Notes: generated by a model not told the origin, from the sequence alone. 64,000 bases of DNA from a virus (IMGVR_UViG_3300001868_000007:20925-84924); one strand, 5' to 3'. Counted from the first letter of the stretch, positions 30,911-53,844 are shown. Translations and numbers: made by a program.

Positions 30911-31654
30911 ATGCCTAACTTCGAAGAAATTCAAAAAGCTAGAATACTCAATTCTTTCAATATTGACGAGGGATTAAGTGAACTCACCAAAGCCGAAATT
31001 CTTGATATTGAAAAAGGAGGGAAGCGTGCATTAATCGGGGAGAAACGTACCTTTGCAGGAAGGGAATACATCAAAACTACAGACGGTTGGAAGTTTCATG
31101 GGAAAGGAACTGGAGCTAAAGCACAATCTCACATTGCTGGCGCATTAGAGCATCATGTTGGAGAGAAGAAAGAGAGTGAAGAAGTTGGTTCTACACAAGC
31201 GGATTATGGTACATATTTAGATAGATCTAAAGTAACGAAAGAGGATGTTGAGAAATTCGATAACTCTTTGTCAGAAGAAGATCGAAATCTTATTGAAGTA
31301 GCTATGAAGGATTATCGAACTCAAGGAGGAGTTTTCCATTCTCCTGGAGACATATTAGCTTTTAAAAAGAAAACTTTACAAAAAGAATCTACATCTACTC
31401 ACAAAGATGAAGATTCAAAGGAATCTCACGAAAAGAGAGGTTTTAAAGAAGAGTCGGGAGATGAAGATATAACTAGTAAAAGTGAAATTGTTACCGATTC
31501 TTCTGAAAAACAACGACTCAGAAACGGGATAAGAGAGGGTGAAATGATTCTTCAATCTAAGAGATCAGCTACCGGAAGAAAAATGCATGAAGATGAATTA
31601 GGTGCAGTTAGAAGATCTGTTGAAAACTCAAAAAAGAAGTTAGGTGAAAAATAA
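30911..31654 (+). CDS. Putative internal head protein (leader family, KRTFxGREYIK module)
   Basis: EEIQKARILNSF leader; 43-aa module 35/43 identical to a segment of the Nudix protein. Confidence 0.65.
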   Translation: MPNFEEIQKARILNSFNIDEGLSELTKAEILDIEKGGKRALIGEKRTFAGREYIKTTDGWKFHGKGTGAKAQSHIAGALEHHVGEKKESEEVGSTQADYGTYLDRSKVTKEDVEKFDNSLSEEDRNLIEVAMKDYRTQGGVFHSPGDILAFKKKTLQKESTSTHKDEDSKESHEKRGFKEESGDEDITSKSEIVTDSSEKQRLRNGIREGEMILQSKRSATGRKMHEDELGAVRRSVENSKKKLGEK

Positions 31655-31713
31655 AGAAGAATAAACAATCGCAACAAACAAATCGAAAAACTTAATCTTC
31701 AATTATTGAAATA

Positions 31714-32001
31714 ATGGTAAAGAAAGTGTCGAGTTGGTTTGGTGAAAACCAAATAATAGTCGGATCAATAATCACTTTATTGATATATGGGATCGGTCTT
31801 TACATTGCAGTAAGCGATAAAGTTTCAGCAAACACAACCAAAGACGCTGTCTATCAAGAAAAAGTTGATCAGCACGATAAACGAATCAACAGTATCGAAG
31901 CTACACTCAAAGATATCAATGACGCTGTTAATCGTATCGATAAGAATGTAGTTGAGATTAAGACAGAGGTAAAGTATAAAAAGGATAAAGGAGATAAATA
32001 A
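31714..32001 (+). CDS. Holin/antiholin-like protein (TM + coiled coil)
   Basis: One TM followed by coiled coil, directly upstream of endolysin. Confidence 0.5.
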   Translation: MVKKVSSWFGENQIIVGSIITLLIYGIGLYIAVSDKVSANTTKDAVYQEKVDQHDKRINSIEATLKDINDAVNRIDKNVVEIKTEVKYKKDKGDK

Positions 32002-32639
32002 TGAGGTTAATCAAAGATTTTCAAACGAAATACGGATTAGTCCCTGACGGACAAATTGGTAAGAAAACTCTTTTGAAAATCAAAGAGGTTCTGTTAATTC
32101 CAACCATCGAAGCATTATCTCATTATATGGGACAATGTGATCATGAAAGTATGACTTTCACTCAGTTAGTAGAGAATCTTAATTATTCATCTCAAGGATT
32201 ACTTGGAACCTTTGGTAAGTATTTCGACGATAAAACAGCTCCACTCTATCAACGCAATCCTGAAAAGATAGCAAATAGAGTTTACGCTAATCGAATGGGG
32301 AACGGTAACGAAATGAGCGGAGACGGATGGAGACATCGAGGTTTTGGTCCGATTCAATTAACTGGAAAAACAAATCAAGATGCGTTTGCAAAAAAGATTA
32401 GCGATCCACTTATAGTTGATAATCCCTCTTTAATTGCAGCCAAATATGCTTTTGAATCAGCTAAATTTTTCTTTGATGATAGGAGTTTATGGAGTTATTG
32501 TAAAAAAGTAGATGTTGCTTCGATCACTAAAGTATCTAAACTAATCAATCAAGGGAATTTGAAAGCAAAAGGAGATCCAAATGGACTTCAAGAACGTATT
32601 GAGAAAACAAATCATTATTATAAAATTCTAACAACATAA
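32001..32639 (+). CDS. Endolysin, glycoside hydrolase family 19 with N-terminal peptidoglycan-binding motif
   Basis: FQ..YGL.PDG.IG..T; Q..HES...ENLNYS, ANRVYANRMGNG, DGWRHRG.GPIQLTG. Confidence 0.92.
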   Translation: MRLIKDFQTKYGLVPDGQIGKKTLLKIKEVLLIPTIEALSHYMGQCDHESMTFTQLVENLNYSSQGLLGTFGKYFDDKTAPLYQRNPEKIANRVYANRMGNGNEMSGDGWRHRGFGPIQLTGKTNQDAFAKKISDPLIVDNPSLIAAKYAFESAKFFFDDRSLWSYCKKVDVASITKVSKLINQGNLKAKGDPNGLQERIEKTNHYYKILTT

Positions 32640-32644
32640 CGAAT

Positions 32645-32974
32645 ATGAAATCATTAATTTTTACAAACGGAGCAAACATTCGTGTTGAATATGTAGTTGA
32701 TCAATTAGGAACCAACACAGGCAACATCACAGTAATGGAAATCAAAGGTTTGGATACAGCAGAAGAAGCTTTATTCCAGGGTTTTCAAAAACTTCCAACA
32801 AATCTTGCAGCCTTCAAAGCGTTCGCTACAGCGAATCACATGCAACTGACAGAAGCTGATCAAGATGCTTCAACATCGTTGATTAATGCTACCACAACGA
32901 CAACCACTGCAGCTCCAACTACTACGACCACGACTGCCGCTCCTACAACTACTACAACAACTACTGCCGGATAA
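32645..32974 (+). CDS. Putative virion protein with C-terminal poly-Thr tail
   Basis: Ends TTTTTTAAPTTTTTTAAPTTTTTTTAG. Confidence 0.65.
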   Translation: MKSLIFTNGANIRVEYVVDQLGTNTGNITVMEIKGLDTAEEALFQGFQKLPTNLAAFKAFATANHMQLTEADQDASTSLINATTTTTTAAPTTTTTTAAPTTTTTTTAG

Positions 32975-32977
32975 TAA

Positions 32978-33919
32978 ATGTTTCAGCTCACGCCAGAAAA
33001 TACGAACGAACTCCTTAACATCATTGATCGCAATCAATGCGTAATGGTAGCTAAGGAATTTGGACCCAACTTTTTAACGGAGTATGATAAATCACTTCTA
33101 AGCGATTATGGAGTGAAAGTAGATGAATTATACCAATTAGAGAACGATACTGTATTCTCGAGCTTCCATTTCGGCTTATTAAGCGATTCATTGGAAGCGA
33201 TAAGATCTGTTAGCAAAGTAACATATGACGATCTTAAAGAATACATCAAAGGTGGAAATTATATTCCACTAACTGAACAAGAGAAAGCGACCATTAATCA
33301 CATCAAAACTCAAAACCTAAGTTCATTGAAAGGGTTAGGGGGGAAGATTTTCCAAGATGTGAATGGGATACTCGACGACAACTCAAGAACAGCTCAAGAA
33401 GAATTCTTGAAGAGAGAAGTAGTTGAAGGAACACTGAAGAAACAAACAATTCGACAAATTGCTAATGAGATAGCAAGTAAAACAGGAGACTGGAGTCGAA
33501 ATTTTGATCGTATAGTTGAATATATGTCACAATCAGCATTTGAGAGTGGTAAAGCTGCAGCGATTGAAAGACAAGTAAGTGGTGATCCTCTTGTATTTAA
33601 GCGAGTTTTCAATGGTGCTTGTAAAAATTGTATCAGACTATACCTTACAAAAGGATTAGGTAGTGAGCCGAGAATCTTCAAGTTAAGTGAACTAAAAGCG
33701 AACGGAGATAATATCGGAAGAAAAACTGCAGATTGGAAGGCTACTCTAGGAAGTTTGCACCCATTTTGCAGATGTTCACTTCACCACAAAACTCCAGGAT
33801 ACGCTTTTGATCCAAAAACGAACAACTTCAGTATCTACGATGAAAAAGAAAGACCGCAACTTAAAAGAGCTCGTGAAAAAATAAAAGCGATAATAGGTGG
33901 AGTTGAGGTCTGGGTATAA
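32978..33919 (+). CDS. MuF/gp7-like head morphogenesis protein
   Basis: AC..C..LY, HPFCRC motif; located in head module. Confidence 0.8.
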   Translation: MFQLTPENTNELLNIIDRNQCVMVAKEFGPNFLTEYDKSLLSDYGVKVDELYQLENDTVFSSFHFGLLSDSLEAIRSVSKVTYDDLKEYIKGGNYIPLTEQEKATINHIKTQNLSSLKGLGGKIFQDVNGILDDNSRTAQEEFLKREVVEGTLKKQTIRQIANEIASKTGDWSRNFDRIVEYMSQSAFESGKAAAIERQVSGDPLVFKRVFNGACKNCIRLYLTKGLGSEPRIFKLSELKANGDNIGRKTADWKATLGSLHPFCRCSLHHKTPGYAFDPKTNNFSIYDEKERPQLKRAREKIKAIIGGVEVWV

Positions 33920-33941
33920 TTAATTGAACTATCTTTAGAAA

Positions 33942-34268
33942 ATGAAGCTAATCATATTCACAAGACAAGATAATATTGAAGTCAAATTTAAAACCTCTAT
34001 TAAAGATGTTAATAATTTGGATGAGAATTTTGTGATTAGTGATATCAAACTCAACACATATCTTGAACAAAGTCTTTTTTATAGTTTCGATAAGAAACAG
34101 TGGACTTTGAATGAGATGTTGTTTTTCGCAGCAAACAATTTAATGTTAGTTGAGATTTATGATGAAATAGGAATAACTTTATTAAAAACGTATGATTGTA
34201 CTTCAGGAACAGTACCCACAACAACTACCACTACTACAATTTCTACAACTACAACAACCACAGTATAA
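33942..34268 (+). CDS. Putative virion protein with C-terminal poly-Thr tail
   Basis: Ends VPTTTTTTISTTTTTTV; TATCTTTAG box at 33930. Confidence 0.6.
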   Translation: MKLIIFTRQDNIEVKFKTSIKDVNNLDENFVISDIKLNTYLEQSLFYSFDKKQWTLNEMLFFAANNLMLVEIYDEIGITLLKTYDCTSGTVPTTTTTTTISTTTTTTV

Positions 34269-35473
34269 TGTTTCAAAAAACACTAGATAGAATCGGACAA
34301 CTTCTTGCTTTAAAGAAGAATAAAACTCACTACTCTGATTGTGTGATTAGAGATGAGAAAGGTAGAATTTGTTTACTTCATCGATCATATCAAGCTGATT
34401 TTGAACCAGGTAAATGGTGTTTACCTGGAGGACATATCGAAGAAGGGGAAGAACCAATAGTTGCAGCAGCTCGCGAACTTGAAGAAGAAACTGGTTATAA
34501 AGACATACCATTGTCTTATATTGACAAGATTGATCGTAAAGATAGTGTTAGTCTGTACTACGAAGGATTCGTTTGGAGTGGAACAGCAGTTCTTCTTGAT
34601 AACGACGAGCATTATCGAATTCAATGGGTTAGATCAGAAGATCTCGATGATTATGAACTATTATGTGATCTCAAAGATATACTCGCAAAATTACCGTTGT
34701 CTCCAGTTCCTACACTTCCAGAAGTAGCTCCGGCAGGAGAAGATTTATATACTTCGTGGCAAAACAACTTCGCATCATTTGATGAAGGCAAAATCAACGA
34801 AGCAACATTCTTTAAAACTATTGAAATCCACAAAGCTGTCGCTGCTTACGAATTAGTAACCAGAGCTTTTGATAATGACGAAATCACGCCGGAAGAATTC
34901 AGTAGAGTTCATAGAGTCGAAAAAGCAGAAGGATTCGATCAAGCTCTTGAGCTTGCAAAAGAAACTGACACTGAAGTGTTGGAGGATATCGTGAAGGGTG
35001 GAAGAAAAGCTATGATCGGCGAAAAGAGAACTTTTGGTGGCAGAGAATATATTAAGACAGTCGATGGTTGGAAGTTTCATGGGAAAGGAACTGGCTCAAA
35101 AGCTCAAGAGCATGTAAAGAACAGCTCTGAGAAGAAAGAAGATAATTCTGATATTCAAGATAAATTGGATTATTTTAAAGAACTTTCACCAGAAGAGCAA
35201 ACTCAATATCATAAAACTCTTACTGAAAAATGGATTCCTGAAACAGAAGAGAGTCTTAAAAATGCTTCAGGAGCTTCGAAAGAAATCTACGAAAAACAAA
35301 GCAAATTTGAGCAACAACTTCTCTTATCGATTGAAAAAATTATAAAAGATGATAAAGTTGAAAAAATGGACACAGGATCTGTTCCTGGAGCTGAGACAGT
35401 AACTGAAAACGGAAAGTTAGTAAAAAGCGAAGATAAAGAAATAACTAAAGCAGATCATACAAAATGGCTATAA
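34268..35473 (+). CDS. Nudix hydrolase fused to the putative head-cargo module (start revised from 34196)
   Basis: Nudix box GGHIEEGEEPIVAAARELEEETG; internal DIVKGGRKAMIGEKRTFGGREYIK module; TAATG start overlap. Confidence 0.85.
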   Translation: MFQKTLDRIGQLLALKKNKTHYSDCVIRDEKGRICLLHRSYQADFEPGKWCLPGGHIEEGEEPIVAAARELEEETGYKDIPLSYIDKIDRKDSVSLYYEGFVWSGTAVLLDNDEHYRIQWVRSEDLDDYELLCDLKDILAKLPLSPVPTLPEVAPAGEDLYTSWQNNFASFDEGKINEATFFKTIEIHKAVAAYELVTRAFDNDEITPEEFSRVHRVEKAEGFDQALELAKETDTEVLEDIVKGGRKAMIGEKRTFGGREYIKTVDGWKFHGKGTGSKAQEHVKNSSEKKEDNSDIQDKLDYFKELSPEEQTQYHKTLTEKWIPETEESLKNASGASKEIYEKQSKFEQQLLLSIEKIIKDDKVEKMDTGSVPGAETVTENGKLVKSEDKEITKADHTKWL

Positions 35474-35955
35474 TATCAAATAAGGCGATCGAGTTACTCA
35501 ACTACAGAATAGCTCAAGAAGAAGCAAGCTCACGACTATACAAGTCAATGGCAGTATGGTTAGATTACAACGGTTACTCAGGAGCAGCTTCTTTATGGCA
35601 GAAATACTCCGATGAAGAATTAGTTCATGCAGGATTCTCCTACGACTATCTACTCGATTTGAACATCAAACCTACAGTACCGGTAATCGAGAAACCAACT
35701 GGAGAATTCAGAGATTTGCCCCAGATCATAGCTGCCTCTTTTCAGCACGAAGTTGAAATTACAAATCAATGTAAAGTTTTAGCGAAGAGTGTAGCAGATG
35801 AAGACGATTACATGACACTAACCTTAGCTCAGAAATACCTTTCAGAACAGGTGGATGAGCTCAAAAAAACGCAATTCTTAGTAGACCAACTCAACATCTT
35901 TGGAACAGATAAAATCGCTCTACAATTACTCGATACTAAATTAGGAGAGCTATAA
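35464..35955 (+). CDS. ftn: Non-heme ferritin
   Basis: QEEASSRLY.SMA.W......GAA......EE..HA, HE..IT, YL.EQVDE ferroxidase pattern. Confidence 0.88.
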   Translation: MAIISNKAIELLNYRIAQEEASSRLYKSMAVWLDYNGYSGAASLWQKYSDEELVHAGFSYDYLLDLNIKPTVPVIEKPTGEFRDLPQIIAASFQHEVEITNQCKVLAKSVADEDDYMTLTLAQKYLSEQVDELKKTQFLVDQLNIFGTDKIALQLLDTKLGEL

Positions 35956-35956
35956 C

Positions 35957-37627
35957 ATGAACACAACAAGCAACAAATTTAATTTCTTCGTACCGTTAAG
36001 CTTTGAAAAAGGAACAGACGGTAAGGGAGCGTCAGTTGTAAAGATAAAAGGTGTTGCTTCTTCAGAAGCGGAAGACTCTGATGGAGAGACATTAATTCCA
36101 GCAGGATTTGATTTTGGACCACTACTGAAGACAGGATTCTTAAATTGGAATCATCAAGCGGGAAAATCAGCGAAAGCAATTTGTGGAGAACCAACAAGCG
36201 CTAAAATCATCAACAACGGAAAAGATTTCTACATTGAAGGATTTCTCTATCCAAACGCTCAAGGTAAAGAGGTAGCAGATTTAGCAGAGACTCTTGAGAT
36301 GTATTCTCCAAACAGACGTCTTGGATTCTCTATCGAAGGACAAGCAACTGAAAAAGATCCAATGAATGAAAAAAGGATTACTAAAGCTCGCATCACTGGA
36401 GTAGCAATTACACAGAGTCCAAAAAATCCAAACACACTCATGTCAATCATCAAAGGAGAAACAGATGATCTCTATATTGAAGATGAAGAGTTAACTGACG
36501 AAGAAAAGAAAAAACAAGAAGAAGAAAAAAAGAAAAAAGAAGGTACGACTGAGAAGGCCATGGATACTGAGGCGATGACCCCAGCTATGCCTGAGTCAGT
36601 CGAACATAAAGAAAAGCCCACTGTTGGGTTATCGTTAAACAAAAGTGAAGTTTACATTCAAATCTACGATCGGTATACAACTGACGTAATCAAAGCAAAA
36701 GAAATTTTCAATTTTATATCAAACGTCAACGAAAAACTTTTCAATATGACAAAAGGTGAAAAAATAACTGAAGAAACTCTTCAGAAATCTTTCGAGATTC
36801 TCGATGGACTTGTAAAAGGTAAAGAAGACACAGAAGAAGGTGTTAACAAGATCAAAGAAAAAGAAGAGGAAGAAGATGAAGAAAAAACTGAACCTGCAAC
36901 TTCTGGTAAAGAAGTAGCTGAAGAAGAAACTGAAGAAGTAAAAAAAGCGAAAGCTTGCACCTCAATGGCGAAAAGTTTATTGTCTACCGGTATGGCTCAA
37001 GGCGACGTTGTGAAAGCAATGACTGCTGTAGGAGTGGATCTAACAATGGCAGAAACATCTTGTCAAGCTTGTATTTCTCAAGCAGAAGCTTTGAAAGAAA
37101 ACGGTGGAACTATAACAACTGAAACAGCTCCTATCGTTAAGGGAGAAGAGTCAGTTATTTTAGAATCAACTCCAGATCCAGTTCTTGACCTTGTAAAAGG
37201 TTTACAAAACGGTTTAGGAGAAGGATTCAAAGCTATTGGCGTAATTCTGAAATCAGTAGTTGATGAAAGAAACGATTTGAAAGAAACTCTCAACACTCTT
37301 CAAAAAGGTTTCGATGATCTTTCAGATGACTTCGAAAAACTTGCAGAAACTCCAGCAGCTCCAAAATCAAAACGTACAGTCAAGTCAATCGAACGTTTTG
37401 AAAAAGGAGAAGAAGAAGGCAACGAAGATATGTATTGTATTAATAACGCAGCAGACGTAAAACGTTTAGGTGACCGTATCATGGGTCATGTCGAAATTTT
37501 GAAATCAAAAGGACAAGAAGATTTACAACTTGAAAAAGCAATAGCTGATCTTGAGATCAGTAAATCAACCGACTATACAGCAATAGCTCCTAAATTAAGA
37601 GCATTGAACATCACATTAGTGAAGTAA
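35957..37627 (+). CDS. Prohead protease with C-terminal scaffold region
   Basis: IKGVAS...D.DGE.LIP.G, NWNH, GFSIEG, VAIT..P.NP.T; acidic/helical C-terminus; directly upstream of MCP. Confidence 0.88.
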   Translation: MNTTSNKFNFFVPLSFEKGTDGKGASVVKIKGVASSEAEDSDGETLIPAGFDFGPLLKTGFLNWNHQAGKSAKAICGEPTSAKIINNGKDFYIEGFLYPNAQGKEVADLAETLEMYSPNRRLGFSIEGQATEKDPMNEKRITKARITGVAITQSPKNPNTLMSIIKGETDDLYIEDEELTDEEKKKQEEEKKKKEGTTEKAMDTEAMTPAMPESVEHKEKPTVGLSLNKSEVYIQIYDRYTTDVIKAKEIFNFISNVNEKLFNMTKGEKITEETLQKSFEILDGLVKGKEDTEEGVNKIKEKEEEEDEEKTEPATSGKEVAEEETEEVKKAKACTSMAKSLLSTGMAQGDVVKAMTAVGVDLTMAETSCQACISQAEALKENGGTITTETAPIVKGEESVILESTPDPVLDLVKGLQNGLGEGFKAIGVILKSVVDERNDLKETLNTLQKGFDDLSDDFEKLAETPAAPKSKRTVKSIERFEKGEEEGNEDMYCINNAADVKRLGDRIMGHVEILKSKGQEDLQLEKAIADLEISKSTDYTAIAPKLRALNITLVK

Positions 37628-37687
37628 TCAAATCGTGAATCGCATTTAGAGATCGTTAATCGCAAAATTACAAACAAAAATACAATC

Positions 37688-39154
37688 ATGGTAGGATTAA
37701 ATGACTATGTTGATGGTTTTGGTGGAACCGAGCAAGAAGGTCAATTAGAGTTGCAAAAAGCAATGTCTGCAGGCCAAATTACCGGTAGAGAAACCACAGG
37801 TTTATCATTAACTCAAGAACCTCTGAAAGCAGAGTCTCTTGAAAAAACACTGAAATTACTTGAATTTCGGACAACGGATATCAAATTATTCAACGCTATT
37901 CCTAAGCTAACAGCTTATAACACTGTTGAAGAATTCTTGCAATTATCAAGTTACGGTTCTCAACGCGGAGGTTTCTATAATGAAGGCGAACTTTCAGATG
38001 TAGAAGATTCTAAATATATCCGTCGGTCTGAGTTGATAAAATACATGCAGGTTACCGGTGAAGTAACAATGCAGGCTCAAATGGTACGTTCGTACGTTGA
38101 TGCAATGCGTAAGGAAGTTGAAAACAAAATGATGTGGATCATGCGTTTAGCCAACACAACTTTGACAAAAGGTGACGCTGACATTATTCCTCAGGAATTC
38201 AACTCTATCTACAAACAACACGCAAGTATTGGCGCAACACAAGATTTCTTGTATCCAACTTTCGAAGCTTACTACAACAGTGGTACAGTAGTTGATTTAC
38301 GCGGAAAGAGTTTGAAACAATCTGATGTTGAAAATGGCGCTATCAAAGTAGATGAAAACTACGGTACAATCTCTCACTTGGCTGCTCCAACAACTGTTCT
38401 TTCAGCTTTAGCTCAAGACTATTTCGAAACTCAACGCATCATCCAAAACGGTACTGGATTTGAAGGTAAAATTGGAGTTGTTCCAAAAGTGATCTCAACA
38501 ACTATGGGAGACGCAGCTTTGATGGGTGACAAATTTATGAAGGCAGATCCTTCAAAAAATTCAGCTACTCCTTCAACTTCTACGAAAGCTCCTTCTGCTC
38601 CAACGATCTCTACAGTTGCAACTGCTGCTGACGCGTTATCGAAATATGTAACCGGTGAATTGGGTGACTGTTTCTATGCAGTATCTGCAATCAATCGTTA
38701 CGGTGAATCAAACTTAGCTATCCACGCTACTCCAATCACATTGGCTGCTGGTTATTCTGTGGATTTGACTTTTGTTGCTGGTGCTGGATCAAACGTAACT
38801 AACGGTTATGTGATCTTCCGCACGAAAATCACTACTGCTACTACTCCTGCAGGTTTAGAATTTTATCCTATCTTCCGAGTTGGCTCTGCAAATCTTTCTG
38901 CAGGATTCAATAACGGAGCTCCCGGTACAATTCGCGACGCTGGATATTTCTTACCAAACACTGAACAAGCATTCTTGACTCAGATTGATGAAGAAGTTGT
39001 AGCATTCAAACAATTGGCTCCAATCTCGAAATTGGACTTAGCTGTATTGTCTATGAGCCGCAGATTTATTACATTTTTATTCGGAACGACCCAGGTGTAT
39101 GCGCCAAAAAAGATCATACGTTACATCAACGTAGGGAAAACTTTAACAGCTTAA
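37688..39154 (+). CDS. Major capsid protein
   Basis: L..ESLE..L, FN.IPK..AYNTVEEF, F.E.E.....DS...R: SPO1/K-type MCP; followed by strong terminator. Confidence 0.92.
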   Translation: MVGLNDYVDGFGGTEQEGQLELQKAMSAGQITGRETTGLSLTQEPLKAESLEKTLKLLEFRTTDIKLFNAIPKLTAYNTVEEFLQLSSYGSQRGGFYNEGELSDVEDSKYIRRSELIKYMQVTGEVTMQAQMVRSYVDAMRKEVENKMMWIMRLANTTLTKGDADIIPQEFNSIYKQHASIGATQDFLYPTFEAYYNSGTVVDLRGKSLKQSDVENGAIKVDENYGTISHLAAPTTVLSALAQDYFETQRIIQNGTGFEGKIGVVPKVISTTMGDAALMGDKFMKADPSKNSATPSTSTKAPSAPTISTVATAADALSKYVTGELGDCFYAVSAINRYGESNLAIHATPITLAAGYSVDLTFVAGAGSNVTNGYVIFRTKITTATTPAGLEFYPIFRVGSANLSAGFNNGAPGTIRDAGYFLPNTEQAFLTQIDEEVVAFKQLAPISKLDLAVLSMSRRFITFLFGTTQVYAPKKIIRYINVGKTLTA

Positions 39155-39175
39155 TTGTTGTTTAAATATATAATT

Positions 39176-39212
39176 AAGAAGCGTCGCCTATATTGTGCGA
39201 CGCTTCTTTTGC
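39176..39212 (+). terminator. Rho-independent terminator after MCP
   Basis: AAGAAGCGTCGC/GCGACGCTTCTT stem followed by TT. Confidence 0.85.
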
Positions 39213-39262: not shown

Positions 39263-39724
39263 ATGGTATTATTAAAAACAACACTGCAACACAAATGGGG
39301 TAGAAACGCCTGCCTTCCAATCATTGGAGATGTAACTATCTCAGAAGAAGGAACTATCGAAGTAGAATCTGAAGAGATTGCTCAACAGATTGAAGATCTT
39401 GAAATTGGTTTCAGTATAGCTGAAGAGGTAGAAATAACTACTACCACAACCGAAGCGACAACAACAACTACCACTACCGAGTTGATCGTAGAGAAAGTTG
39501 AAAAAGACGAACTCAATCCTGAAAGCGAAACCGAACTTCATAAAGAAAGTCAAGGCGACGAAACCGATCTAATCTCTCAACTTGAAAAAGAAATCTTCTT
39601 TGCTTCGCTTGAAGAAAAGAAGCTTGAAGAATTGAAAGAGTTAGCAAAAGACTTTCCTGGTAAAGAATGGAGAGCTTTGAAAAAAGAAGATTTGATCATT
39701 TATTTGAAAGAAAAATTAGCTTAA
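39263..39724 (+). CDS. Hypothetical virion protein with internal poly-Thr tract
   Basis: EITTTTTEATTTTTTTE; C-terminal Rho-N-like L..K.L.ELKELAK...LKK.DLI..L. Confidence 0.65.
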   Translation: MVLLKTTLQHKWGRNACLPIIGDVTISEEGTIEVESEEIAQQIEDLEIGFSIAEEVEITTTTTEATTTTTTTELIVEKVEKDELNPESETELHKESQGDETDLISQLEKEIFFASLEEKKLEELKELAKDFPGKEWRALKKEDLIIYLKEKLA

Positions 39725-39730
39725 TACAAC

Positions 39731-40579
39731 ATGCCTCAAATAAACTTTAGTATAATAATTAATAAGAGCACTCGACAGATTTTATCTGTTGAAGAGTTCA
39801 AACAGAAGTATTTGTTTGGTCTACCCCTTGAAAAAGATGGAGTACTCATACCAGCAGAGATCTATGAGCACTATCTAAGTGCAGCTAAGGAACAAGTTGA
39901 GGATTTATTGAATTTAAGACTAAACAGAGAAATTATCAGAGAGCAAAAAGACTTCTTCTACGACGATTGGGTACATTGGAGTTACACGAAAGCGACTTAT
40001 CCGGTAGTGTACCCAATTGCGTTGAAAGGTTATCTCGGCACAACTAAACAAGTTGATTATCCTCGTTCATGGTTACAAGCTCGCAAAACAAGCGATAATA
40101 AATTGTATAGTCGACTTCTTTACATGGTCCCAACTTACAATTCAGTCACAAGTCAGAACTCAATTATCTTCTCAGGAGTAATGCCTAATCTGAATTGGTT
40201 CGCTTCTTACGGAGCTAACGGTCAAATTCCATCGTATTGGAACCAAGAATACATCACAGGGTTCGATAAAATTCCATCAGACATTATTCATGTTATTGGA
40301 ATGCTCGCTAGCATCTCTTTTTTGGCAGTTCTAAGTGATATGCTGATGGGAAATCGTCAAGCTGGGGAAACTGGCTCAGGAATAGGTTGGGGTTTAAATT
40401 CAAAGAGTATTTCGATAGACGGATTATCACAATCGTTGTCAAGTGGAGCGACAAGCGGTATCTTTAAGGCACGGATCCAACAATATCAACAAACTCTTGG
40501 AGATCTTAGAGGTCAAAAATCCGGAGAATTGCAACGATTGATCGATTATTATAACGGTATTTTAATGATTTGCGCATAA
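39731..40579 (+). CDS. Head-tail adaptor / head completion protein
   Basis: Position after MCP; Y...A...VE..LN, SKS.SIDGLSQS. Confidence 0.65.
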   Translation: MPQINFSIIINKSTRQILSVEEFKQKYLFGLPLEKDGVLIPAEIYEHYLSAAKEQVEDLLNLRLNREIIREQKDFFYDDWVHWSYTKATYPVVYPIALKGYLGTTKQVDYPRSWLQARKTSDNKLYSRLLYMVPTYNSVTSQNSIIFSGVMPNLNWFASYGANGQIPSYWNQEYITGFDKIPSDIIHVIGMLASISFLAVLSDMLMGNRQAGETGSGIGWGLNSKSISIDGLSQSLSSGATSGIFKARIQQYQQTLGDLRGQKSGELQRLIDYYNGILMICA

Positions 40580-40581
40580 TT

Positions 40582-41061
40582 ATGAATGAATTTCAAAAAG
40601 CTCAGAGCGAGCGTATTTTAGGTTGTTACGGCGAAAGTTCGGAAACTCTTTTAGAAAAAGGTGGAGAAGGTGCTCGTGGCGGAAAGGTTATCGGTCACAC
40701 AAAATCAGGTAAACCAGTATATGCAAATCTAAAAGCTGACCACGAGAATTATAAACATTTCACTTCAACAGATCATAAAGAAGCTGCAAGCCTTCACAAT
40801 GACGCTAAGCAATTCCTTCACCCTCGTGAAAACGCAGGAGAGATGGATAAGCACCGTAGTGCATCAGAGAGTCACATTGAAACAAGTCATCGCCCCTACA
40901 AGAATCATTCAAAAGAAGAATTACACAAACTTGCAGATAAGAAAGCTGGAAGGGATCGTGCTGACGCAGTAGATGAATTAGCTAATCGCTACAGAGAGTC
41001 TCATCCAGGACAGACAGCTAACACATCGGCTTTAGATAGATCTGATCCCAAAACACATTAA
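40582..41061 (+). CDS. Putative internal head protein (leader + GGKVIGHTKSGKPVY + His-rich module)
   Basis: MNEFQKAQSERILGCYGE...LEKG; start revised from 40570. Confidence 0.7.
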   Translation: MNEFQKAQSERILGCYGESSETLLEKGGEGARGGKVIGHTKSGKPVYANLKADHENYKHFTSTDHKEAASLHNDAKQFLHPRENAGEMDKHRSASESHIETSHRPYKNHSKEELHKLADKKAGRDRADAVDELANRYRESHPGQTANTSALDRSDPKTH

Positions 41062-41064
41062 CCA

Positions 41065-41826
41065 ATGCCACTTCAACCAACTAACCTTCCGCCTCCAAGA
41101 GCTGATCTCGACAAAGCTGAGTTCGAAAAGCTTATTGATCAAAAAGGTGGAGATGTGATCTTTGAAAAAGCACTTGAATGTCCTTGTAAATCAAAATCTA
41201 CCAATCAACAAAGTGACTGTAAAAACTGCGGAGGAACTGGATGGGTATTCATTAATCCAGTACAGACACGAATGATCTTGACTGCAATCAATATCGTAAC
41301 AGATTTCAAGGCATGGTCAGAGGAAATGAGAGGAACTGTCAACATTACTTGTAAAGCTGAAGAGCAACTTTCAGTGATGGATAAAATAACCGTTCTAAAC
41401 GGAGAAGCTATTTTCAATGAAGTACTCTTTTTGAGAAAGAAGGGCGAAGAAGTTTTTTGCTACACTACGTACGCTGTAAAGGAGATTTTATATGTAGGCA
41501 TGTTCGTAGCAACAGACGAACCATTACTAAGATTGATTGAGGGCGCTGATTTCACAATTGAAGGCAGCATTTTCAAATTAACAAATCTCGATCTTCTTGG
41601 AAGTGACTCAACTGGTGAGAATACATCTTTCACAATAAGATATAAACACGCTCCTGAGTTTCACGTAATTGAAATGCGGAGAGAAACAATGCAAACATTC
41701 GAGTGGCGAGGAACTGAAAGACTTCAAAGCATGCCAGTTTCAGCAATAGCTCGAAGAGCACATTATCAACTAAAAGCAAACAATCTCCTTGGAGATAGAT
41801 TAATCGATAATTCATATATAGAATAA
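41065..41826 (+). CDS. Head closure / neck protein
   Basis: CPC...C..C.GTGW motif typical of K/SPO1-type neck protein. Confidence 0.7.
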   Translation: MPLQPTNLPPPRADLDKAEFEKLIDQKGGDVIFEKALECPCKSKSTNQQSDCKNCGGTGWVFINPVQTRMILTAINIVTDFKAWSEEMRGTVNITCKAEEQLSVMDKITVLNGEAIFNEVLFLRKKGEEVFCYTTYAVKEILYVGMFVATDEPLLRLIEGADFTIEGSIFKLTNLDLLGSDSTGENTSFTIRYKHAPEFHVIEMRRETMQTFEWRGTERLQSMPVSAIARRAHYQLKANNLLGDRLIDNSYIE

Positions 41827-41827
41827 T

Positions 41828-42199
41828 ATGCTAAACGAAATCCAAAAAGCACAAAGTGCACGCATTCTTGCTACTTATGGCGAAACTTCAGAAAGTATTC
41901 TTGAAAAGAGTGGCGAAGGCTCCAAAGGTGGCAAAATCATAGGACATACTAAATCCGGGAAACCCATTTATGAACACTCGATACATACTTCAAAAGATTT
42001 TACTGCGGAAGATCACAGTGATGCAACGAGTGCTCATATGAAAGCTGCAAAATCAGCGAACGAAAAGAAGCAATTTCTTCACCCAAAAGAAAACGCAGGA
42101 GAGATGGAAAAATTGCGGAATCAATCTCAACATCATTCTTCAATGGCTGAGCTACATTCAAATGCAATAAATCAGAAATATGACGAAAAGAAAGACTAA
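41828..42199 (+). CDS. Putative internal head protein (leader family)
   Basis: MLNEIQKAQSARILATYGE...LEKSGEGSKGGKIIGHTKSGKPIY. Confidence 0.7.
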   Translation: MLNEIQKAQSARILATYGETSESILEKSGEGSKGGKIIGHTKSGKPIYEHSIHTSKDFTAEDHSDATSAHMKAAKSANEKKQFLHPKENAGEMEKLRNQSQHHSSMAELHSNAINQKYDEKKD

Positions 42200-43009
42200 A
42201 TGATCGTACCAATTATCATAGATGGATCAGCTTTACAGCAACAGTTTGCTCTCAGTTCAGATCAAATTGAATCCATTTGCGATAATATAGCCAAAACCCT
42301 TGCAGTACGCTACGCACAACAACTAGAGCAAGAAGCAAATAACGCACTTCACTCCACTAGGCAACGCTATATTAAAAGTGTACACGTAGTTGATTCTGGA
42401 AGAGCGGAAAGTATGGTAGTTCTTGACTACTCAAAAGATAAGTTGATTCAAATGCTTGAAGAAGGTGCAAGTCCCTTCGACGAAAAAACAAAATTATTAG
42501 CAAGCACAAAAGCTAAGATTGGTAAAAATGGAGGAAGATATATAACTGTTCCAATGCGTTGGGGAACTCCTGGTATAGTAGGAGAGAGTGACGTATTCAC
42601 AGGGATACTACCACAACAAGTTTACGATGTTGTAAAAGCAAAGTCTACAAATATTCCAGTAAGTGGAGGAGGTTCAAGAAGTGCTGGATTAAGCGCAGGA
42701 GAAATTCCTAGTCCGTTTAACGCGATAGGAAGCAGAGCTCCAATAGTAGATTCAGTAGGAAAAGTACTTTTCAACGAATACCAACACAAGACCTCAATTT
42801 ATCAAGGAGTCTCAAAGAAAACAGATCTATCTACTGGACAAAATACATATAACTCATTCCGTAGAGTAAGTGAAAATAGCGATAAAGACGCTTTCATTCA
42901 CCCAGGAATTGAGCAATACAACTTAATTCAGCGTGCTTTAGACAACTTCGATAGAGATAATATTGTATCAATAGCTATAGATCAAGAATTAATCAATTTA
43001 GGTTTTTAA
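42200..43009 (+). CDS. Neck / tail completion protein
   Basis: Synteny; GRYITVP, FRRVSENS...FIHPG. Confidence 0.6.
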   Translation: MIVPIIIDGSALQQQFALSSDQIESICDNIAKTLAVRYAQQLEQEANNALHSTRQRYIKSVHVVDSGRAESMVVLDYSKDKLIQMLEEGASPFDEKTKLLASTKAKIGKNGGRYITVPMRWGTPGIVGESDVFTGILPQQVYDVVKAKSTNIPVSGGGSRSAGLSAGEIPSPFNAIGSRAPIVDSVGKVLFNEYQHKTSIYQGVSKKTDLSTGQNTYNSFRRVSENSDKDAFIHPGIEQYNLIQRALDNFDRDNIVSIAIDQELINLGF

Positions 43010-43011
43010 AA

Positions 43012-43743
43012 ATGCAGACATTAATCGTTCCAGAAACTATTATACTTGATTCTCTTGAAAAAGCGTTACAATTTGTTCGTACTGATTACGCAACGAATAT
43101 AGCTGCAAATACAGAACAAGATTCATATCTTTATCGAATTCTTCAGGGAGTAGGAATAGAGCGATATACTTACTTCACTCAAGGAAAGAAAGTATTTCTT
43201 GCAGCAGAGGATGATCCTCGCTTATTGAATATTGATCTTGTTTACAACATGAATGTTAACAAGGTACCAAGCGTTTACATAGCTTTAGCTAACGAACAAA
43301 ACGGTCAAAACGGATTAGGGTTAGATGAAGGATATCAACAGGATCTTGAGAATGAAGACGGAACAGCTCTATCAGTCTTTACTCGCAGAAAAAATACTTC
43401 ATATAACATAATGATTACAAGCGACAATTCAAACGAAGTCGTTATGATTTATCATTTCTTGTACGCTTTATTAACATCACTTACTCCTCACATGAATATG
43501 CGAGGATTAGAAAATATTTCAATTGGAGGACAAGATCTGCAACTAAGAGGAGATTTGATTCCTAAGAGCATTTTCATGCGAGCTCTAGCGATCAATCTTC
43601 AGTACGAGATATCAGTTCCTGATCTAAGTAGAAATCCAACTGCTGGAGATATATTCTTTTCTGGAAGTCCAGTAGAGGAAATTACTCCAACTACTACGAC
43701 TACAACAATATCAGTCACCACAACCACAACAACTATAATTTAA
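43012..43743 (+). CDS. Tail terminator-like protein with C-terminal poly-Thr tail
   Basis: Synteny upstream of sheath; ends ITPTTTTTTISVTTTTTTII. Confidence 0.6.
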   Translation: MQTLIVPETIILDSLEKALQFVRTDYATNIAANTEQDSYLYRILQGVGIERYTYFTQGKKVFLAAEDDPRLLNIDLVYNMNVNKVPSVYIALANEQNGQNGLGLDEGYQQDLENEDGTALSVFTRRKNTSYNIMITSDNSNEVVMIYHFLYALLTSLTPHMNMRGLENISIGGQDLQLRGDLIPKSIFMRALAINLQYEISVPDLSRNPTAGDIFFSGSPVEEITPTTTTTTISVTTTTTTII

Positions 43744-43748
43744 GAAAT

Positions 43749-43964
43749 ATGGCAAAGCAAAAAGAAGATCAACCTTTTTCTGAGGGTCAAGAAGGAACAA
43801 CTACTACTACAACCAAAGCTCCTAAAAAAATAGACCTACAAAATTATTTGGATAGTTTATCTTTAATGAGAGCGGAACGAACGTATTACGAAAGGACTTA
43901 TGGTCAAGTTCGAATCTCGAAGACCTATGAGGAGTGGAAAAAAGAAATCAAGATCGTTCATTAA
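43749..43964 (+). CDS. Small protein upstream of sheath with poly-Thr tract
   Basis: EGTTTTTTKAP; equivalent small gene precedes the sheath in K-like phages. Confidence 0.55.
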   Translation: MAKQKEDQPFSEGQEGTTTTTTKAPKKIDLQNYLDSLSLMRAERTYYERTYGQVRISKTYEEWKKEIKIVH

Positions 43965-45975: not shown

Positions 45976-45991
45976 TAAATAAGACATAATT

Positions 45992-46504
45992 ATGGCTAAC
46001 GAAAAAGACAATAAGACCTTAACCGGTGCCATCGCCTTGATTTTGGTGGGAGATCAGGTGATTGGTAAAATGAAAAGTGTACGCTGTCAGGAAAACATAC
46101 GACGTCTTCCAGTGCGTGGAATAGGAACTATCTTACCTTCTGAACAAGCAGTTATTGAATGGGAAGGAACATTAAGTTGTGAATTCATGGAAGTGAATTT
46201 TACTAAAACAGGAATCACCAATGCTATTCGTAGAGCACTCCCAAATATCGCTTCACAAGTGTTAGATGGAGTAGCTTCATTCGAGGACCAATTAATCCTT
46301 GACATAGAAGGAGTACAGGTGAACATCTTCAAGAAAATCTCTGACGTAGTTGGAGCTAACGGTATCATTAAACCTAAACTGACTCCTTACGCTATTGTGA
46401 AGAATTGTCTGATTGAATCAGACAGCTTTGATATTTCAGAAGGATCTATTGCCGGTCACTCACAATCTTTCAAGTACTTAGTTCCACTAACTCAATTAAC
46501 ATAA
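45992..46504 (+). CDS. Tail tube protein
   Basis: Follows sheath; V.GIG...P.E...EWEGTLS, C.I.S.SF.I. Confidence 0.85.
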   Translation: MANEKDNKTLTGAIALILVGDQVIGKMKSVRCQENIRRLPVRGIGTILPSEQAVIEWEGTLSCEFMEVNFTKTGITNAIRRALPNIASQVLDGVASFEDQLILDIEGVQVNIFKKISDVVGANGIIKPKLTPYAIVKNCLIESDSFDISEGSIAGHSQSFKYLVPLTQLT

Positions 46505-46505
46505 G

Positions 46506-47108
46506 ATGAACGCACAAGAATTTCAAAAAGCTCAGAAAACGAAGCTTCTCGCATGTTATGGTGAAACTCCAGAATCTTTGATTGAGAAAGCTCAGATTGA
46601 GAACGATCTTGAGAAGGGTGGTGAAGGTTCAAAGGGCGGCAAGATCATTGGTCATACCAAATCCGGTAAGCCAGTATATGAAAGTTCAGATCATTCTAAA
46701 CTTTCAGTAGCAGAGCATCGTGAAAGAGGTAGTAGTTTAAACTCTTACAATGAAGGAGCTCCTTCTCGAGATTCAGAAGAGGGACAAAAGAATCTAATTC
46801 TTTCAACTCATCATCGCCAATCTATTCTAGATCATTCTACAGATAAGGGTGAACATATTGGTCGCACGGAAAGTGGTAAATCAATATATTCGGAAGCAAA
46901 TCATCCGTCTCACGCTAATTTTACTCAAAAAGATCACAAAGACGCTGCAAGTCTACATCAAAGTCTACAGCGCGATCAAAATGCTCCCTCAAGAGACATG
47001 GAAGGAAGTTTAAAAGCAAGACATCATTACGATCAAGGTTATGCACATTCAGAAGCTTCTAAATCAAAAAAGAATCATAATAACTTATACGGAATCAATC
47101 AAGACTAA
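46506..47108 (+). CDS. Putative internal head protein (leader family, duplicated G.T.SGK..Y module)
   Basis: QEFQKAQKTKLLACYGE...IEKA...LEKGGEGSKGGKIIGHTKSGKPVY; second HIGRTESGKSIY. Confidence 0.7.
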   Translation: MNAQEFQKAQKTKLLACYGETPESLIEKAQIENDLEKGGEGSKGGKIIGHTKSGKPVYESSDHSKLSVAEHRERGSSLNSYNEGAPSRDSEEGQKNLILSTHHRQSILDHSTDKGEHIGRTESGKSIYSEANHPSHANFTQKDHKDAASLHQSLQRDQNAPSRDMEGSLKARHHYDQGYAHSEASKSKKNHNNLYGINQD

Positions 47109-47153
47109 AACGATGCTTTTAAGCAATTAATCTTCATATTTAAAACCACACAG

Positions 47154-47192
47154 AAAGAGTCTTACATTTAAAATCTGTAAGGCTCTTTTGTT
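47154..47192 (+). terminator. Rho-independent terminator
   Basis: AAAGAGTCTTACA/TGTAAGGCTCTTT stem followed by TGTTT. Confidence 0.7.
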
Positions 47193-47251
47193 TATAAACA
47201 AGAAAAAAGAGCTATTTTTAGGTTCACTTAAAACAAATTAAATTCATCGCA

Positions 47252-47638
47252 ATGGAAACAAAAACATCGCCTTTAAAAAGAAGTACAACTATTGTTATCA
47301 AAAACAATAACTATGACGTAACTTATCCAAACACCGGACAATCAATGGATATCGCTCTTCTTATAGCGAAAATCTCTGACGGCAATTACGACACTTTACG
47401 TTTCAGTACAAGTTCACTGCTTCAGGAACAAGCAGACAAAGTCGACATGATTGCTGTATTCAATACACTCATTCCTCAATTGAAACAAGATCTTACAGTA
47501 AAGTCACTATTCGATTTATCTGAAGAGCAATCAGATGAGTTACTTGTTGTTTACAAGGAGCAATTTTTGACTTGGTTCAGTCCAATCAAAGATGCTATCA
47601 AGAATCCAAAATCTCAAATTGCAAAAGATGAAAAATAA
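47252..47638 (+). CDS. Tail assembly chaperone
   Basis: Between tube and tape measure. Confidence 0.6.
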   Translation: METKTSPLKRSTTIVIKNNNYDVTYPNTGQSMDIALLIAKISDGNYDTLRFSTSSLLQEQADKVDMIAVFNTLIPQLKQDLTVKSLFDLSEEQSDELLVVYKEQFLTWFSPIKDAIKNPKSQIAKDEK

Positions 47639-47958
47639 TGGGATCCGAGCTAAAAACCTTTATGATAAGGTGGAGCAACGATCATCCCTTAGATAGGGGA
47701 TTTCGAGAGAAATACAAGATTTCTTTCAATTCACCACAACATCGAGAAATCAATCAATTTGACATTCTTCTTGAGTACTTAGAGAATGTTCTAATGCAAG
47801 AGTATGAAGAAAGGGTTGAATTAGACGTTAAGAATAGAGAACTGTACAACAAAGGTGTATGGCTTAACGAAAACGTCACAGAAGAAGAAAACGAAAGTTT
47901 CTTTGACAATCTTGATATTTCATCGATAAACGATAATTCTCAGCTACAAATAGAATAA
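47638..47958 (+). CDS. Second tail assembly chaperone (GT-like)
   Basis: In -1 frame to upstream gene, TAATG overlap; directly before tape measure. Confidence 0.55.
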   Translation: MGSELKTFMIRWSNDHPLDRGFREKYKISFNSPQHREINQFDILLEYLENVLMQEYEERVELDVKNRELYNKGVWLNENVTEEENESFFDNLDISSINDNSQLQIE

Positions 47959-50043: not shown

Positions 50044-50061
50044 TCAAAACAAAAGTAGATT

Positions 50062-53000: not shown

Positions 53001-53388
53001 CACAGGGAAGTTAGAGTTAGCTGAGAGCGCAAGTAAAGTAGGAGTTAGATCTCGACCTTTAGCTGAGATTCTTCCTCATTATAACGAAATATCTCTTCGT
53101 AAATACGTAGGTAATTTTAGAACACCTATTGAAAACACAATAGTAGAGACACCTATATATGAGACGAGAATAATTACTACAAAGAAAAAAGATATTGATA
53201 GATCGAAAGTTTTTAGTAACTTTAGAGTCTTTAAGAGTTGTTTTAATTTCTTTTTAAGAAGATTAATGAATGATGACCGATTAGTTACTAATTTACTTCA
53301 CGAAGCAAGTGTAACCAATAAAAACATCAATCGCTTCTCAGATGAAGAAATCAAAATGTACAAAGATATATTTAAAATCAATCAATAA
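50062..53388 (+). CDS. Baseplate hub protein with inserted NlpC/P60 peptidase domain
   Basis: V.GRDLSK.F, PF.E.Y.DT hub motifs; Y.W..G....IDCSGFV...DHIAIV NlpC/P60 Cys-His dyad. Confidence 0.85.
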   Translation: MSENKTLVYEVTHSSPEFKTVADYIQDPTSPAHEYIGDMDSFLSVLHKDGKTTNRQVIEAGYKKKWEKAKYTPNKSANQLFLPIGTKLAIETNKNDRGLGLLTQGIEVVSNDIPVFKARALAELESDKRYRLISKPIDGKLQGKMNERYPDMTVWMWCRALSNTQENEGQIVNITPFIQKVSTNVDKNGGNFQLTLPPLVCELGENKKWIIKKKSLQNYQTSKNNSLQGDGYVAEASLFKIGKDGGLKRNELLFHNIISSNDMVWIRFETLEIEKEQRAKDNVDFYIDKSNLAGRIYDMIGLVDSNIQVVNPQDNDVTIQVNGRDLSKLFIEDGSYFYALEMSQGQLSFAGGSTQQNSLMQRVFSDNALQYFNSYFNNSIENVLKFVIQQLSTIKVVPDNLFTSYGNRRNKKFNEGAQSKQLKAQRDSLQDIEKKAKESIKALRIEVQLTESQPSTESREIDTIWYKLLDFMSALRTQKVRENNGTNTTGWKSFAYTTSSGKEDIIANTLPQYFFSNLHITLYYTKAQVFKKVEQSLFNDIDKYLDLKESQPQNQELWTEDLANGVWQIIKLVIDDGVTQRRIVDSSMSSANGSLLNFIRKVCQEPFVEFYMDTYGDTYNLIVRKPPYDRSGVVSMLNGTTNVEGDSSKETKITSTVIDIEPEDVLREELSYNDGNVATWYHLIPQANFVGNSSTWSLSYLPAVFLQEYADIWGSRPMQCIHNYMPYMLLNPSETTLDICEKQAFEDLKYIVECNAYLPFTRRGTLSLNGDRRLKYGNIVRYKSTGEIFFIDHVQQNFSISENSIDRTSTVQVSRGMKEVLINGVAVVDEILGESGSTFSYFDIVNTNLNTSVTKEYTKTTTEKVQVGSKKETQIKSEIDNLFTNVNKYKGYKWVLGTSGEGEKIDCSGFVSKVLQLSGVKIARTTAEEIMKKSKDLKPVEFFDATSLQEGDVIGLGTQKDKGKKIYGIDHIAIVVKNSSTGKLELAESASKVGVRSRPLAEILPHYNEISLRKYVGNFRTPIENTIVETPIYETRIITTKKKDIDRSKVFSNFRVFKSCFNFFLRRLMNDDRLVTNLLHEASVTNKNINRFSDEEIKMYKDIFKINQ

Positions 53389-53409
53389 AACTTAATTAAT
53401 ATATAATTA

Positions 53410-53844
53410 TGAACGATTTTATATCTCATCAAGCAGAAAAGATATTAGCGTGTTACACAGATAATTCGTTAAATTCATGTATAAATAAAGCCGAAGAAAA
53501 ATGATCTTGAAAAGAGTGGCGAAGGCTCCAAAGGTGGCAAAATCATAGGACATACTAAATCCGGGAAACCCATTTACAGCAGCACATATCCTGATGAAAG
53601 TTCACATCTTCATTTTTCAAGAGAAGATCTCACAGATGCAATTCAAGCATATAAAGATTATGATCATTCTTTAATGGTTGAATACGATAATCACGGAAAA
53701 GCAATGAAACAAGCTCTTAAAGAGAAAGATAAAAAATCTCACGCTAAAAGTCAACGAGATAGAGCAGAAGTCAATCGTGAACGAGATTTTCAATGGATGT
53801 TCAAGCAAAAACACGAAGAAACTCTTAAGAATAAAAAGGATTAA
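53410..53844 (+). pseudogene. Leader-family protein split by a frameshift in an A5 run (53496-53501)
   Basis: Frame 1 MNDFISHQAEKILACY...KAEEK*; other frame NDLEKSGEGSKGGKIIGHTKSGKPIY...KD* ending in a TAATG overlap with the next gene; missed by ORF track. Confidence 0.8.

Follow-up and report, generated by a model that had tools for sequence, protein, structure and literature searches.

Five small genes (P0001 and g2 to g5) that share an N-terminal leader lie scattered among the virion genes of a viral contig, and this study concerns their likely role. The window, meaning the whole stretch of DNA analysed, comprises 64 kb of an 84.9-kb IMG/VR contig with a completeness estimate of 82% (IMGVR_UViG_3300001868_000007:20925-84924). 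Nearly all of its genes are on the + strand, and gene order was assigned using PHROGs and Pfam (Table 1). The window capsid protein shares 70% identity with its counterpart in Chryseobacterium phage MA9V-3, 36–38% with those of the Bacteroides phages DAC/SJC, and about 30% with those of SPO1-like Bacillus phages. Judged by sequence, this is a Bacteroidota phage of Chryseobacterium host type with a head of the SPO1-like lineage.

Leader-bearing genes in the virion operon

A first-pass annotation, made from the sequence of the window, had proposed that the five genes form a capsid cargo-loading system. All five were found where it had placed them; four are intact and one (g5) is frameshifted. 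It had also described each leader as ending in (L/I)EK[G/S], and such junctions are seen at P0001, g2, g3, g4 and g5 (Table 1, where an arrow marks the proposed cut). The leaders are EEIQKARILNSF in P0001, NEFQKAQSERILGCYGE in g2, NEIQKAQSARILATYGE in g3 and QEFQKAQKTKLLACYGE in g4. The g5 leader is NDFISHQAEKILACY, and its module starts at DLEK↓SGEGSKGGKIIGHTKSGKPIY... in the +1 frame. Two modules occur downstream of the leaders. Module A consists of GEGSKGGKIIGHTKSGKPIY plus a His-rich helical hairpin, while module B follows the pattern GGKRAxIGEKRTFGGREYIK...GWKFHGKG and reads GGKRALIGEKRTFAGREYIKTTDGWKFHGKGTG in P0001. The genes g2, g3 and g4 are paralogues (BLASTP, E 1e-21 to 4e-38). Four genes had been annotated as continuing with module A. 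This holds for g2, g3 and g4, which are intact; g5 is frameshifted and its His motif is degenerate (EDLTDAIQAY).

The leader open reading frame (ORF) of g5 ends at 53504, and the frameshift lies at an A5 run near 53497. A run of this length is shorter than those known to support transcriptional slippage. An assembly error was rejected as the cause since an independent assembly (L007) carries the same lesion. An intact orthologue, P0033, is present in the related contig L002. Because the His motif is degenerate, g5 is probably a pseudogene.

The exact DNA repeats reported in the first pass are real. They comprise 71 nucleotides (nt) shared by g3 and g5 and 19 nt at 40588-40606 = 46518-46536. 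The 71-nt tract covers the invariant core of module A and its 5' edge abuts the g5 frameshift. Its sequence identifies it as a recent gene conversion between g3 and g5, and this conversion may have created the frameshift, given that the lesion is at the 5' edge of the tract. Differences of g2 and g4 from g3 are mainly synonymous and leave the peptide identical; therefore selection on the protein keeps the core.

In MA9V-3, the closest cultured relative, the flanking genes directly abut at the same gene junctions, and no module A was found across the whole genome. All four module-A genes are therefore insertions. The g2 insertion lies between a connector-like gene and the gene of a 253-amino-acid (aa) virion protein, and the g4 insertion follows the tail-tube gene. 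In MA9V-3 the small head-module genes of the window give way to a gene (L001:9609-13988) whose 1,459-aa product matches nothing in Pfam.

Insertions that are missing from the nearest relative and vary in position among related phages, together with a recent conversion tract and a pseudogene copy, would suit morons whose products always stay unpackaged and work in the host cytoplasm, for example against host defence or upon nucleic acids or metals. Such genes would have spread by recombination at late-operon gene boundaries, with LEK-GG belonging to the fold and resembling a cutting motif by coincidence. We regard this as doubtful. The genes are located within the late virion operon, and further points against a cytoplasmic role are given below with the leaders and with the homologues of module A.

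Table 1. Genes and other features of the window, with coordinates in nt (aa, amino acids).
Feature	Coordinates	Strand	Description
Portal	28148-29734		PHROGs/Pfam
P0001	30911-31654	+	247 aa; leader aa 1-35, DIEK↓GG, module B, helical domain aa 105-162, disordered charged tail
Lysozyme-like protein	32001-32639		PHROGs/Pfam
MuF-like minor head protein	32978-33919	+	313 aa; CxxC...HPFCRC motif
Nudix protein	34196-35473	+	NUDIX domain aa 48-151; leader-like stretch, IVK↓GG and module B internal
Ferritin	35464-35955		PF00210, E 9e-23
Prohead protease (aa 1-160) fused to acidic scaffold-like region	35957-37627	+	
Major capsid protein	37688-39154	+	L-Q-K↓A at aa 22-25 (nt 37751-37762)
Neck genes	39263-43964		PHROGs/Pfam
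g2 (P0002/P0006)	40582-41061	+	159 aa from ATG; leader, LLEK↓GG, module A
g3 (P0003)	41828-42199	+	123 aa; leader, ILEK↓SG, module A
Tail sheath	from 44023		PHROGs/Pfam
Tail tube	from 45992		PHROGs/Pfam
g4 (P0004)	46506-47108	+	200 aa; leader, LIEK↓A and DLEK↓GG, two module-A units
Chaperones	47252-47958		PHROGs/Pfam
Tape measure	from 47959		PHROGs/Pfam
Tail lysin	from 50062		PHROGs/Pfam
g5, frameshifted copy	53409-53844	+	leader ORF 53409-53504; module-A frame 53485-53844 (+1)
Baseplate genes	from 53844		PHROGs/Pfam
71-nt exact repeat	41900-41970 = 53506-53576	+	g3 and g5

A leader joined to different modules

The leader is really common to non-homologous downstream modules, and the earlier statement that one leader stands before different modules is borne out. 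A hidden Markov model (HMM) of the leader only, built from 87 family leaders and no P0001-type proteins, matched the N-terminus of P0001 (E 4.6e-4) among 959 ORFs. It also matched the P0001 orthologue in L002 and a 520-aa module-B protein of MA9V-3, and gave no unrelated match below E 1. Modules A and B were compared as possible diverged homologues and this was rejected (hhalign probability 0.4%). Leaders common to non-homologous modules do not suit a junction that is simply part of the fold of a cytoplasmic protein. At the N-terminus of the MA9V-3 protein (L001:6371-7933) a leader-like stretch occurs twice, ahead of module B.

The leader helix is modelled as acidic and amphipathic, with the pattern +-x-(I/L)-(I/L)-x-x-(Y/F)-(G/N), followed by a flexible linker to hydrophobic-x-K↓(G/S/A). 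Among 1,455 ORFs of related IMG/VR loci the leader pattern gave 24 matches against 3.35 in shuffles, and about 6 of the 24 proteins have neither module A nor module B. Leader similarity across module types scored 31.5 within phages and 26.8 between phages (4 loci only). A double-glycine leader of the bacteriocin type was rejected; no more than half of the module-A units have Gly at P1', and the hydrophobic spacing does not fit.

The first pass had also placed the P0001 module inside the Nudix protein. The sharing is real (40% identity, E 3e-24) and extends over about 135 aa, not the 43 that had been given: P0001 aa 4-138 aligns with Nudix aa 235-368 (about 34898-35299), leader included. Metagenomic homologues of module B bear several leader classes, one of them of the g2 type (MNEFQKAQ.AKIL.CY), and one metagenomic protein holds modules A and B together, with ELxK↓GG as the junction before each of them. 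The Nudix ORF is listed from a TTG at 34196, which is inside the poly-Thr region of the preceding gene, and translation probably begins at the ATG at 34268. The L002 version of the Nudix protein has 939 aa with an additional DUF3626-like region, and in other relatives Nudix is fused to module A.

AlphaFold models of P0003 and P0001 were built with alignments. The P0003 model (pLDDT 81) has a helix at aa 2-18, a low-confidence linker at aa 19-31 that contains ILEK↓SG, a beta-hairpin at aa 37-48 and a confident helical hairpin at aa 60-122. In the P0001 model the leader forms two helices and is joined through a linker of lower confidence, which contains DIEK↓GG, to a three-stranded sheet; a helical domain and a disordered tail follow. 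Both models thus place the junction in a low-confidence linker between leader helix and folded module. In the four intact window proteins every copy of hydrophobic-x-K-(G/S/A) is in the leader, and the mature parts have 0. The predicted mature parts have isoelectric points of 7.4-9.0, and His makes up about 9% in the intact module-A proteins.

The five proteins gave no family match in Pfam, PHROGs or NCBIfam (modules A and B against Pfam, E up to 1). Foldseek searches of PDB and BFVD, together with VIA-align wide, returned only generic helical hairpins and bundles for both models (Z <= 8.4). ESM Atlas likewise gave generic helical matches only, and a PDB profile search with A1 gave no match. 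Ferritin-like and encapsulin-cargo hairpins were among the structure matches and were not trusted.

The intergenic insertions at recurrent junctions, and a conserved His-containing beta-hairpin plus helix that faintly recalls a His-Me finger, raise the idea of selfish mobile genes resembling homing endonucleases. We find it barely credible. The searches above returned no nuclease family match and no nuclease structural match, although absence of a match is no proof, and the multi-copy arrays of the module in large effector proteins, described below, do not suit a homing enzyme.

A proposed Lys-type cutting motif in head proteins

Copies of hydrophobic-x-K-(G/S/A) were counted in the protease/scaffold proteins, with expected counts from 500 shuffles. 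The window protein has 19 copies against 3.3 expected, that of MA9V-3 has 21 against 2.5, that of L002 has 20 against 3.4, and Bacillus phage SP-10 (protease plus next ORF) has 16 against 2.6. The enrichment was six- to eight-fold, and 0/500 shuffles reached the observed count in each of the four phages. Two controls, non-hydrophobic-x-K-(G/S/A) and the Arg version of the motif, showed no enrichment. Hydrophobic-x-K followed by any other residue was depleted in the three closest phages (4 against 12.4 expected in the window) but not in SP-10 (8 against 8.8). The T4-type motif [LI]-x-E was dropped, with 8 copies in the window scaffold against 10.1 expected. The phiKZ-type cleavage motif, (S/A/G)-x-E, was also dropped; it was not clearly enriched and was marginally high only in MA9V-3 (17 against 12.1). 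L005, a module-A phage unrelated to these, likewise has motif-rich putative protease and scaffold ORFs.

A site of the same type, L-Q/N-K↓A, occurs at about aa 24 of the capsid proteins of the window, MA9V-3, DAC19 and SP-10, and the window copy is, from its sequence, the probable maturation site. According to PDB sequences, HK97 gp5 matures at a site of this type, F-N-K103↓S104. Literature searches found no report of where SPO1-like capsid proteins are cut during maturation. In the window, N-termini that bear the motif belong to 14/24 ORFs of the head-to-tail-proximal module and 18/96 ORFs elsewhere (Fisher p 2e-4, with paralogues that are not independent). The window protease matches PHROG 1028, 'head maturation protease' (E 4e-35).

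The first-pass annotation had called the tag distinct from that of T4. The site type is the HK97-like hydrophobic-x-K↓(G/S/A) and not the T4-like L/I-x-E. The new N-termini that had been expected after xEK agree with this predicted Lys-type site. The sequence is also compatible with cutting after the junction Glu, though [LI]-x-E is not enriched in the scaffold. Proteomics based on trypsin is ordinarily blind to the proposed cut, as trypsin too cleaves after Lys.

Module A in other phages and the probable role of the small genes

A module-A profile made from 36 homologues identified 2,008 clusters (E <= 1e-3) among 1.84 billion metagenomic protein representatives. Long proteins, the largest of 1,953 aa, make up most of the top matches and hold 2-7 units each. 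K(G/S/A) lies 9-13 residues before the core in 92% of 275 distinct module-A units, and the full motif is present in 80%; P3 is Leu or Ile in 67%, and P1' is Gly, Ala or Ser. A junction kept in 80-92% of diverged units argues against a coincidental likeness, and so against the cytoplasmic morons considered above. Pfam scans of 16 long module-A proteins identified LPD1, Zeta_toxin, NUDIX, DUF6582 and inteins as fused domains. Neighbouring genes include portal genes and giant ART or SNF2 polyvalent proteins. A literature search with peptide strings of the module-A core returned nothing relevant.

In IMG/VR, 71 loci hold 66 distinct module-A ORFs at many different junctions. For 31 of these ORFs a head gene is no more than two ORFs away, 8 have neck genes as neighbours, 5 have tail or baseplate genes, and 1 occupies a neck/tail junction. 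In four related phages the module is embedded in the protease/scaffold ORF itself (L022:9356-10552, L042:8771-10726, L056:944-4240 and L066:33-1652). When all ORFs of the 71 loci were clustered, a MuF-like family was the commonest neighbour (34 loci), followed by portal (29), protease (22) and capsid protein (22), and no recurrent partner other than head genes was found. This consistent linkage with portal, MuF and protease genes, including the protease fusions, also counts against a cytoplasmic role. The L080 relative of the MuF-like family matches PF04233 with E 1.6e-5, which is below the Pfam curated cut-off. Three MuF-like proteins of related phages (L079:8069-10570, L082:13946-16972 and L064:4175-7165) are extended by InPase, Zeta_toxin or intein, and extended proteins of this kind are typical MuF-headed polyvalent proteins. 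The protease/scaffold protein of L056 (1,098 aa) ends in a P-loop (GTGGLGKT) domain.

We lean, with limited conviction, towards reading the small genes as accessory head-internal proteins that would be targeted by the leader, clipped by the head protease and probably ejected, an analogue of T4 capsid targeting with a Lys-type site. The proteins would be made late, along with the virion genes, and the leader, rather than the module, would do the targeting by docking them in the procapsid, on its protease/scaffold core. The prohead protease, digesting its own scaffold and trimming the capsid protein at the same motif, would then remove the leader. The mature proteins would be retained in the head with the DNA and would probably enter the host on infection. 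Their cargo would be module A, predicted as a basic His-rich beta-hairpin plus helical hairpin, or module B, predicted as a small beta-sheet, with other cargo in relatives; in other phages the same modules would be strung into polyproteins joined at the same motif. The cargo-loading system of the first pass is partly supported by the shared leader, the motif and the head-gene context, while its packaging, cleavage and ejection are inferred.

A number of observations weigh against this reading. Cutting after the motif Lys by the prohead protease of this lineage is suggested by motif statistics and the HK97 precedent, and no sequence match in Pfam, MEROPS, NCBIfam or PDB assigned the window protease to a family. 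Several of the leader/module-A genes are among tail and baseplate genes. Some tail proteins, which would not come into contact with a head protease, also have the motif close to their N-termini. The leader-like stretch of the Nudix protein is internal, not N-terminal. Searches of 50,697 cultured-phage records by tblastn with P0003, P0041 and P0044, and by megablast with 7.2 kb, gave no match. The remaining points concern module A itself. The leader is the least conserved part of these proteins while the first 20 residues of the module are nearly invariant, some family members begin directly at the module with no leader, and 182/275 units are internal repeats of long proteins that keep the K↓G/S/A junction and have no leader. 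The LEK-GG junction could be merely part of a conserved domain. Because two thirds of the units are internal, preceded by K↓G/S/A and devoid of a leader, leader plus module A is not simply tag plus effector.

These same features of the module (its conservation, its repeats, and the proteins that start straight at it), with its presence inside the protease/scaffold ORF of four relatives, would be expected if module A itself were a procapsid-core or auxiliary scaffold domain that is degraded or expelled at maturation. The leader would then be only a variable helix, and the small genes would encode accessory scaffold proteins, not delivered cargo. We consider this unlikely, while granting it some weight. 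The scaffold of the window lacks a module A through which homotypic recruitment could occur, and MA9V-3 assembles without any module A, so the module is not needed for assembly. Module A is also found fused to effector-type domains (Zeta_toxin, NUDIX, LPD1), and mature parts that are free of further cutting motifs fit survival rather than degradation.

The conservation of the core can be viewed in two further ways. A near-invariant, Gly-rich core with Ser, Thr, Lys and His might be the recognition site of a modifying enzyme, such as a tag of the type seen in ribosomally synthesized and post-translationally modified peptides or recognized by radical S-adenosylmethionine enzymes, instead of a signal for sorting or cleavage. 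This seems very improbable, as only head genes recur as neighbours in the 71 loci and no maturase-like Pfam domain was seen near module-A genes. Alternatively, the 20-residue core GEGS-K/R-GG-K-I/V-IGHTKSGKPIY, made newly N-terminal by cleavage, might be a portable element for capsid retention and delivery; we offer this as a speculation that is probably wrong. Many unrelated phage lineages would make use of this element, which would possibly bind DNA or metal via its conserved His/Asp. Once a polyprotein had been cut, every piece would have a core of its own and would therefore stay in the head and leave with the DNA. If this were true, the core would be a widespread undescribed protein-packaging domain, known in these searches only from uncultured phages and usable to engineer cargo-loaded phages.

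For accessory head-internal proteins, the closest precedent is in T4, whose internal proteins (IPI, IPII, IPIII and Alt) carry a capsid targeting sequence that is removed by the prohead protease gp21 (PMC9026906). The window genes resemble these in having a short N-terminal propeptide that is common to otherwise unrelated, variable, partly basic proteins and ends in a putative head-protease motif, and in their fast turnover between related phages. They differ in the junction, which is L/I-E-K↓G/S and departs from the gp21 consensus L/I-x-E, and in the leader, which is longer (25-45 aa), helical and acidic. They also belong to an SPO1-like head lineage and are scattered through neck and tail genes, and their packaging is putative.

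HK97 offers the nearest cutting site: F-N-K↓S, cut in gp5 by the gp4 protease, resembles L-Q-K↓A in the window capsid protein and the many copies in the window scaffold. In contrast to HK97, the window protease is fused to a separate long scaffold. To our knowledge, HK97 does not load extra cargo by means of N-terminal leaders.

Polyvalent proteins of phages and conjugative elements are MuF-headed, packaged in the capsid and contain 2-15 effector-type domains per polypeptide (Iyer et al. 2017, PMC5512222). Homologues of module A resemble them, being multi-copy, joined to LPD1, Zeta_toxin, NUDIX and intein domains, and encoded near portal, MuF, ART and SNF2 genes. The window genes are encoded beside portal, MuF and other virion genes, and relatives of the window MuF-like protein carry InPase and Zeta_toxin. 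However, the window genes stand solo, with one or two modules in 123-247 aa, whereas the multi-domain architecture is found in their homologues. Modules A and B match no LPD family in Pfam, which perhaps does not include all of LPD1-40. Processing is proposed here to be by the prohead protease at Lys sites between modules, not by the embedded metallopeptidases stressed in PMC5512222.

Two other systems deliver head proteins with the DNA. The passages of PMC9024508 that deal with P1 describe an N-terminal stretch of about 30 residues that directs the anti-restriction protein DarB into the head, and accessory head proteins delivered with DNA; they give this signal for DarB only, not for a protein family, and describe no removal at a defined protease site. 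The DarB stretch has no sequence similarity to the leader of the window genes. In the phiKZ-like phage SPN3US, the prohead protease trims many of the proteins inside the head, which are ejected into the host (PMC10052503, PMC5694885). The phiKZ group differs in that it is a jumbo-phage lineage with no common leader of this kind, and its motif is not enriched in the window scaffold.

Capsid targeting sequences and head-packaged polyvalent proteins have therefore been described already (PMC9026906, PMC9024508, PMC5512222). What appears to be new is the proposed Lys-type leader system in SPO1-like phages, with two modules that occur as solo cassettes and as protease-jointed repeats, for which our searches returned no database family or paper.

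Proteins injected with phage DNA include anti-restriction and host-takeover factors, and few rules for their loading are known to us beyond those of T4, P1 and the phiKZ group. For SPO1-like phages of Bacteroidota and Bacillota, the locus yields a rule that can be tested, namely an amphipathic leader followed by hydrophobic-x-K↓G/S/A. If the rule is true, the injected proteome of many uncultured phages would be predictable from sequence alone, the cutting of polyvalent polyproteins into units would be explained, and these capsids could be loaded with foreign proteins by means of the tag.

Some other genes of the virion region deserve mention. The 212-aa protein at 32001-32639 contains a weak peptidoglycan-binding motif in addition to its match to the endolysin-type phrog_181 (E 4.5e-51). 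Because its gene is located between portal and protease, the protein may be an enzyme that is ejected to degrade the wall and not one that acts in lysis. The ferritin gene (35464-35955) is directly upstream of the prohead protease gene and abuts it, and it has the same place in the related contigs L002, L014 and L067. A ferritin within a phage head-assembly cluster is reminiscent of encapsulin cargo; it has no leader of the type studied. Finally, threonine runs (TTTTTT...) occur in six virion-module proteins, encoded at 32645-32974, 33942-34268, 39263-39724, 43012-43743, 43749-43964 and 57591-59201, and the poly-Thr genes at 32645 and 33942 are paralogues with 36% identity.

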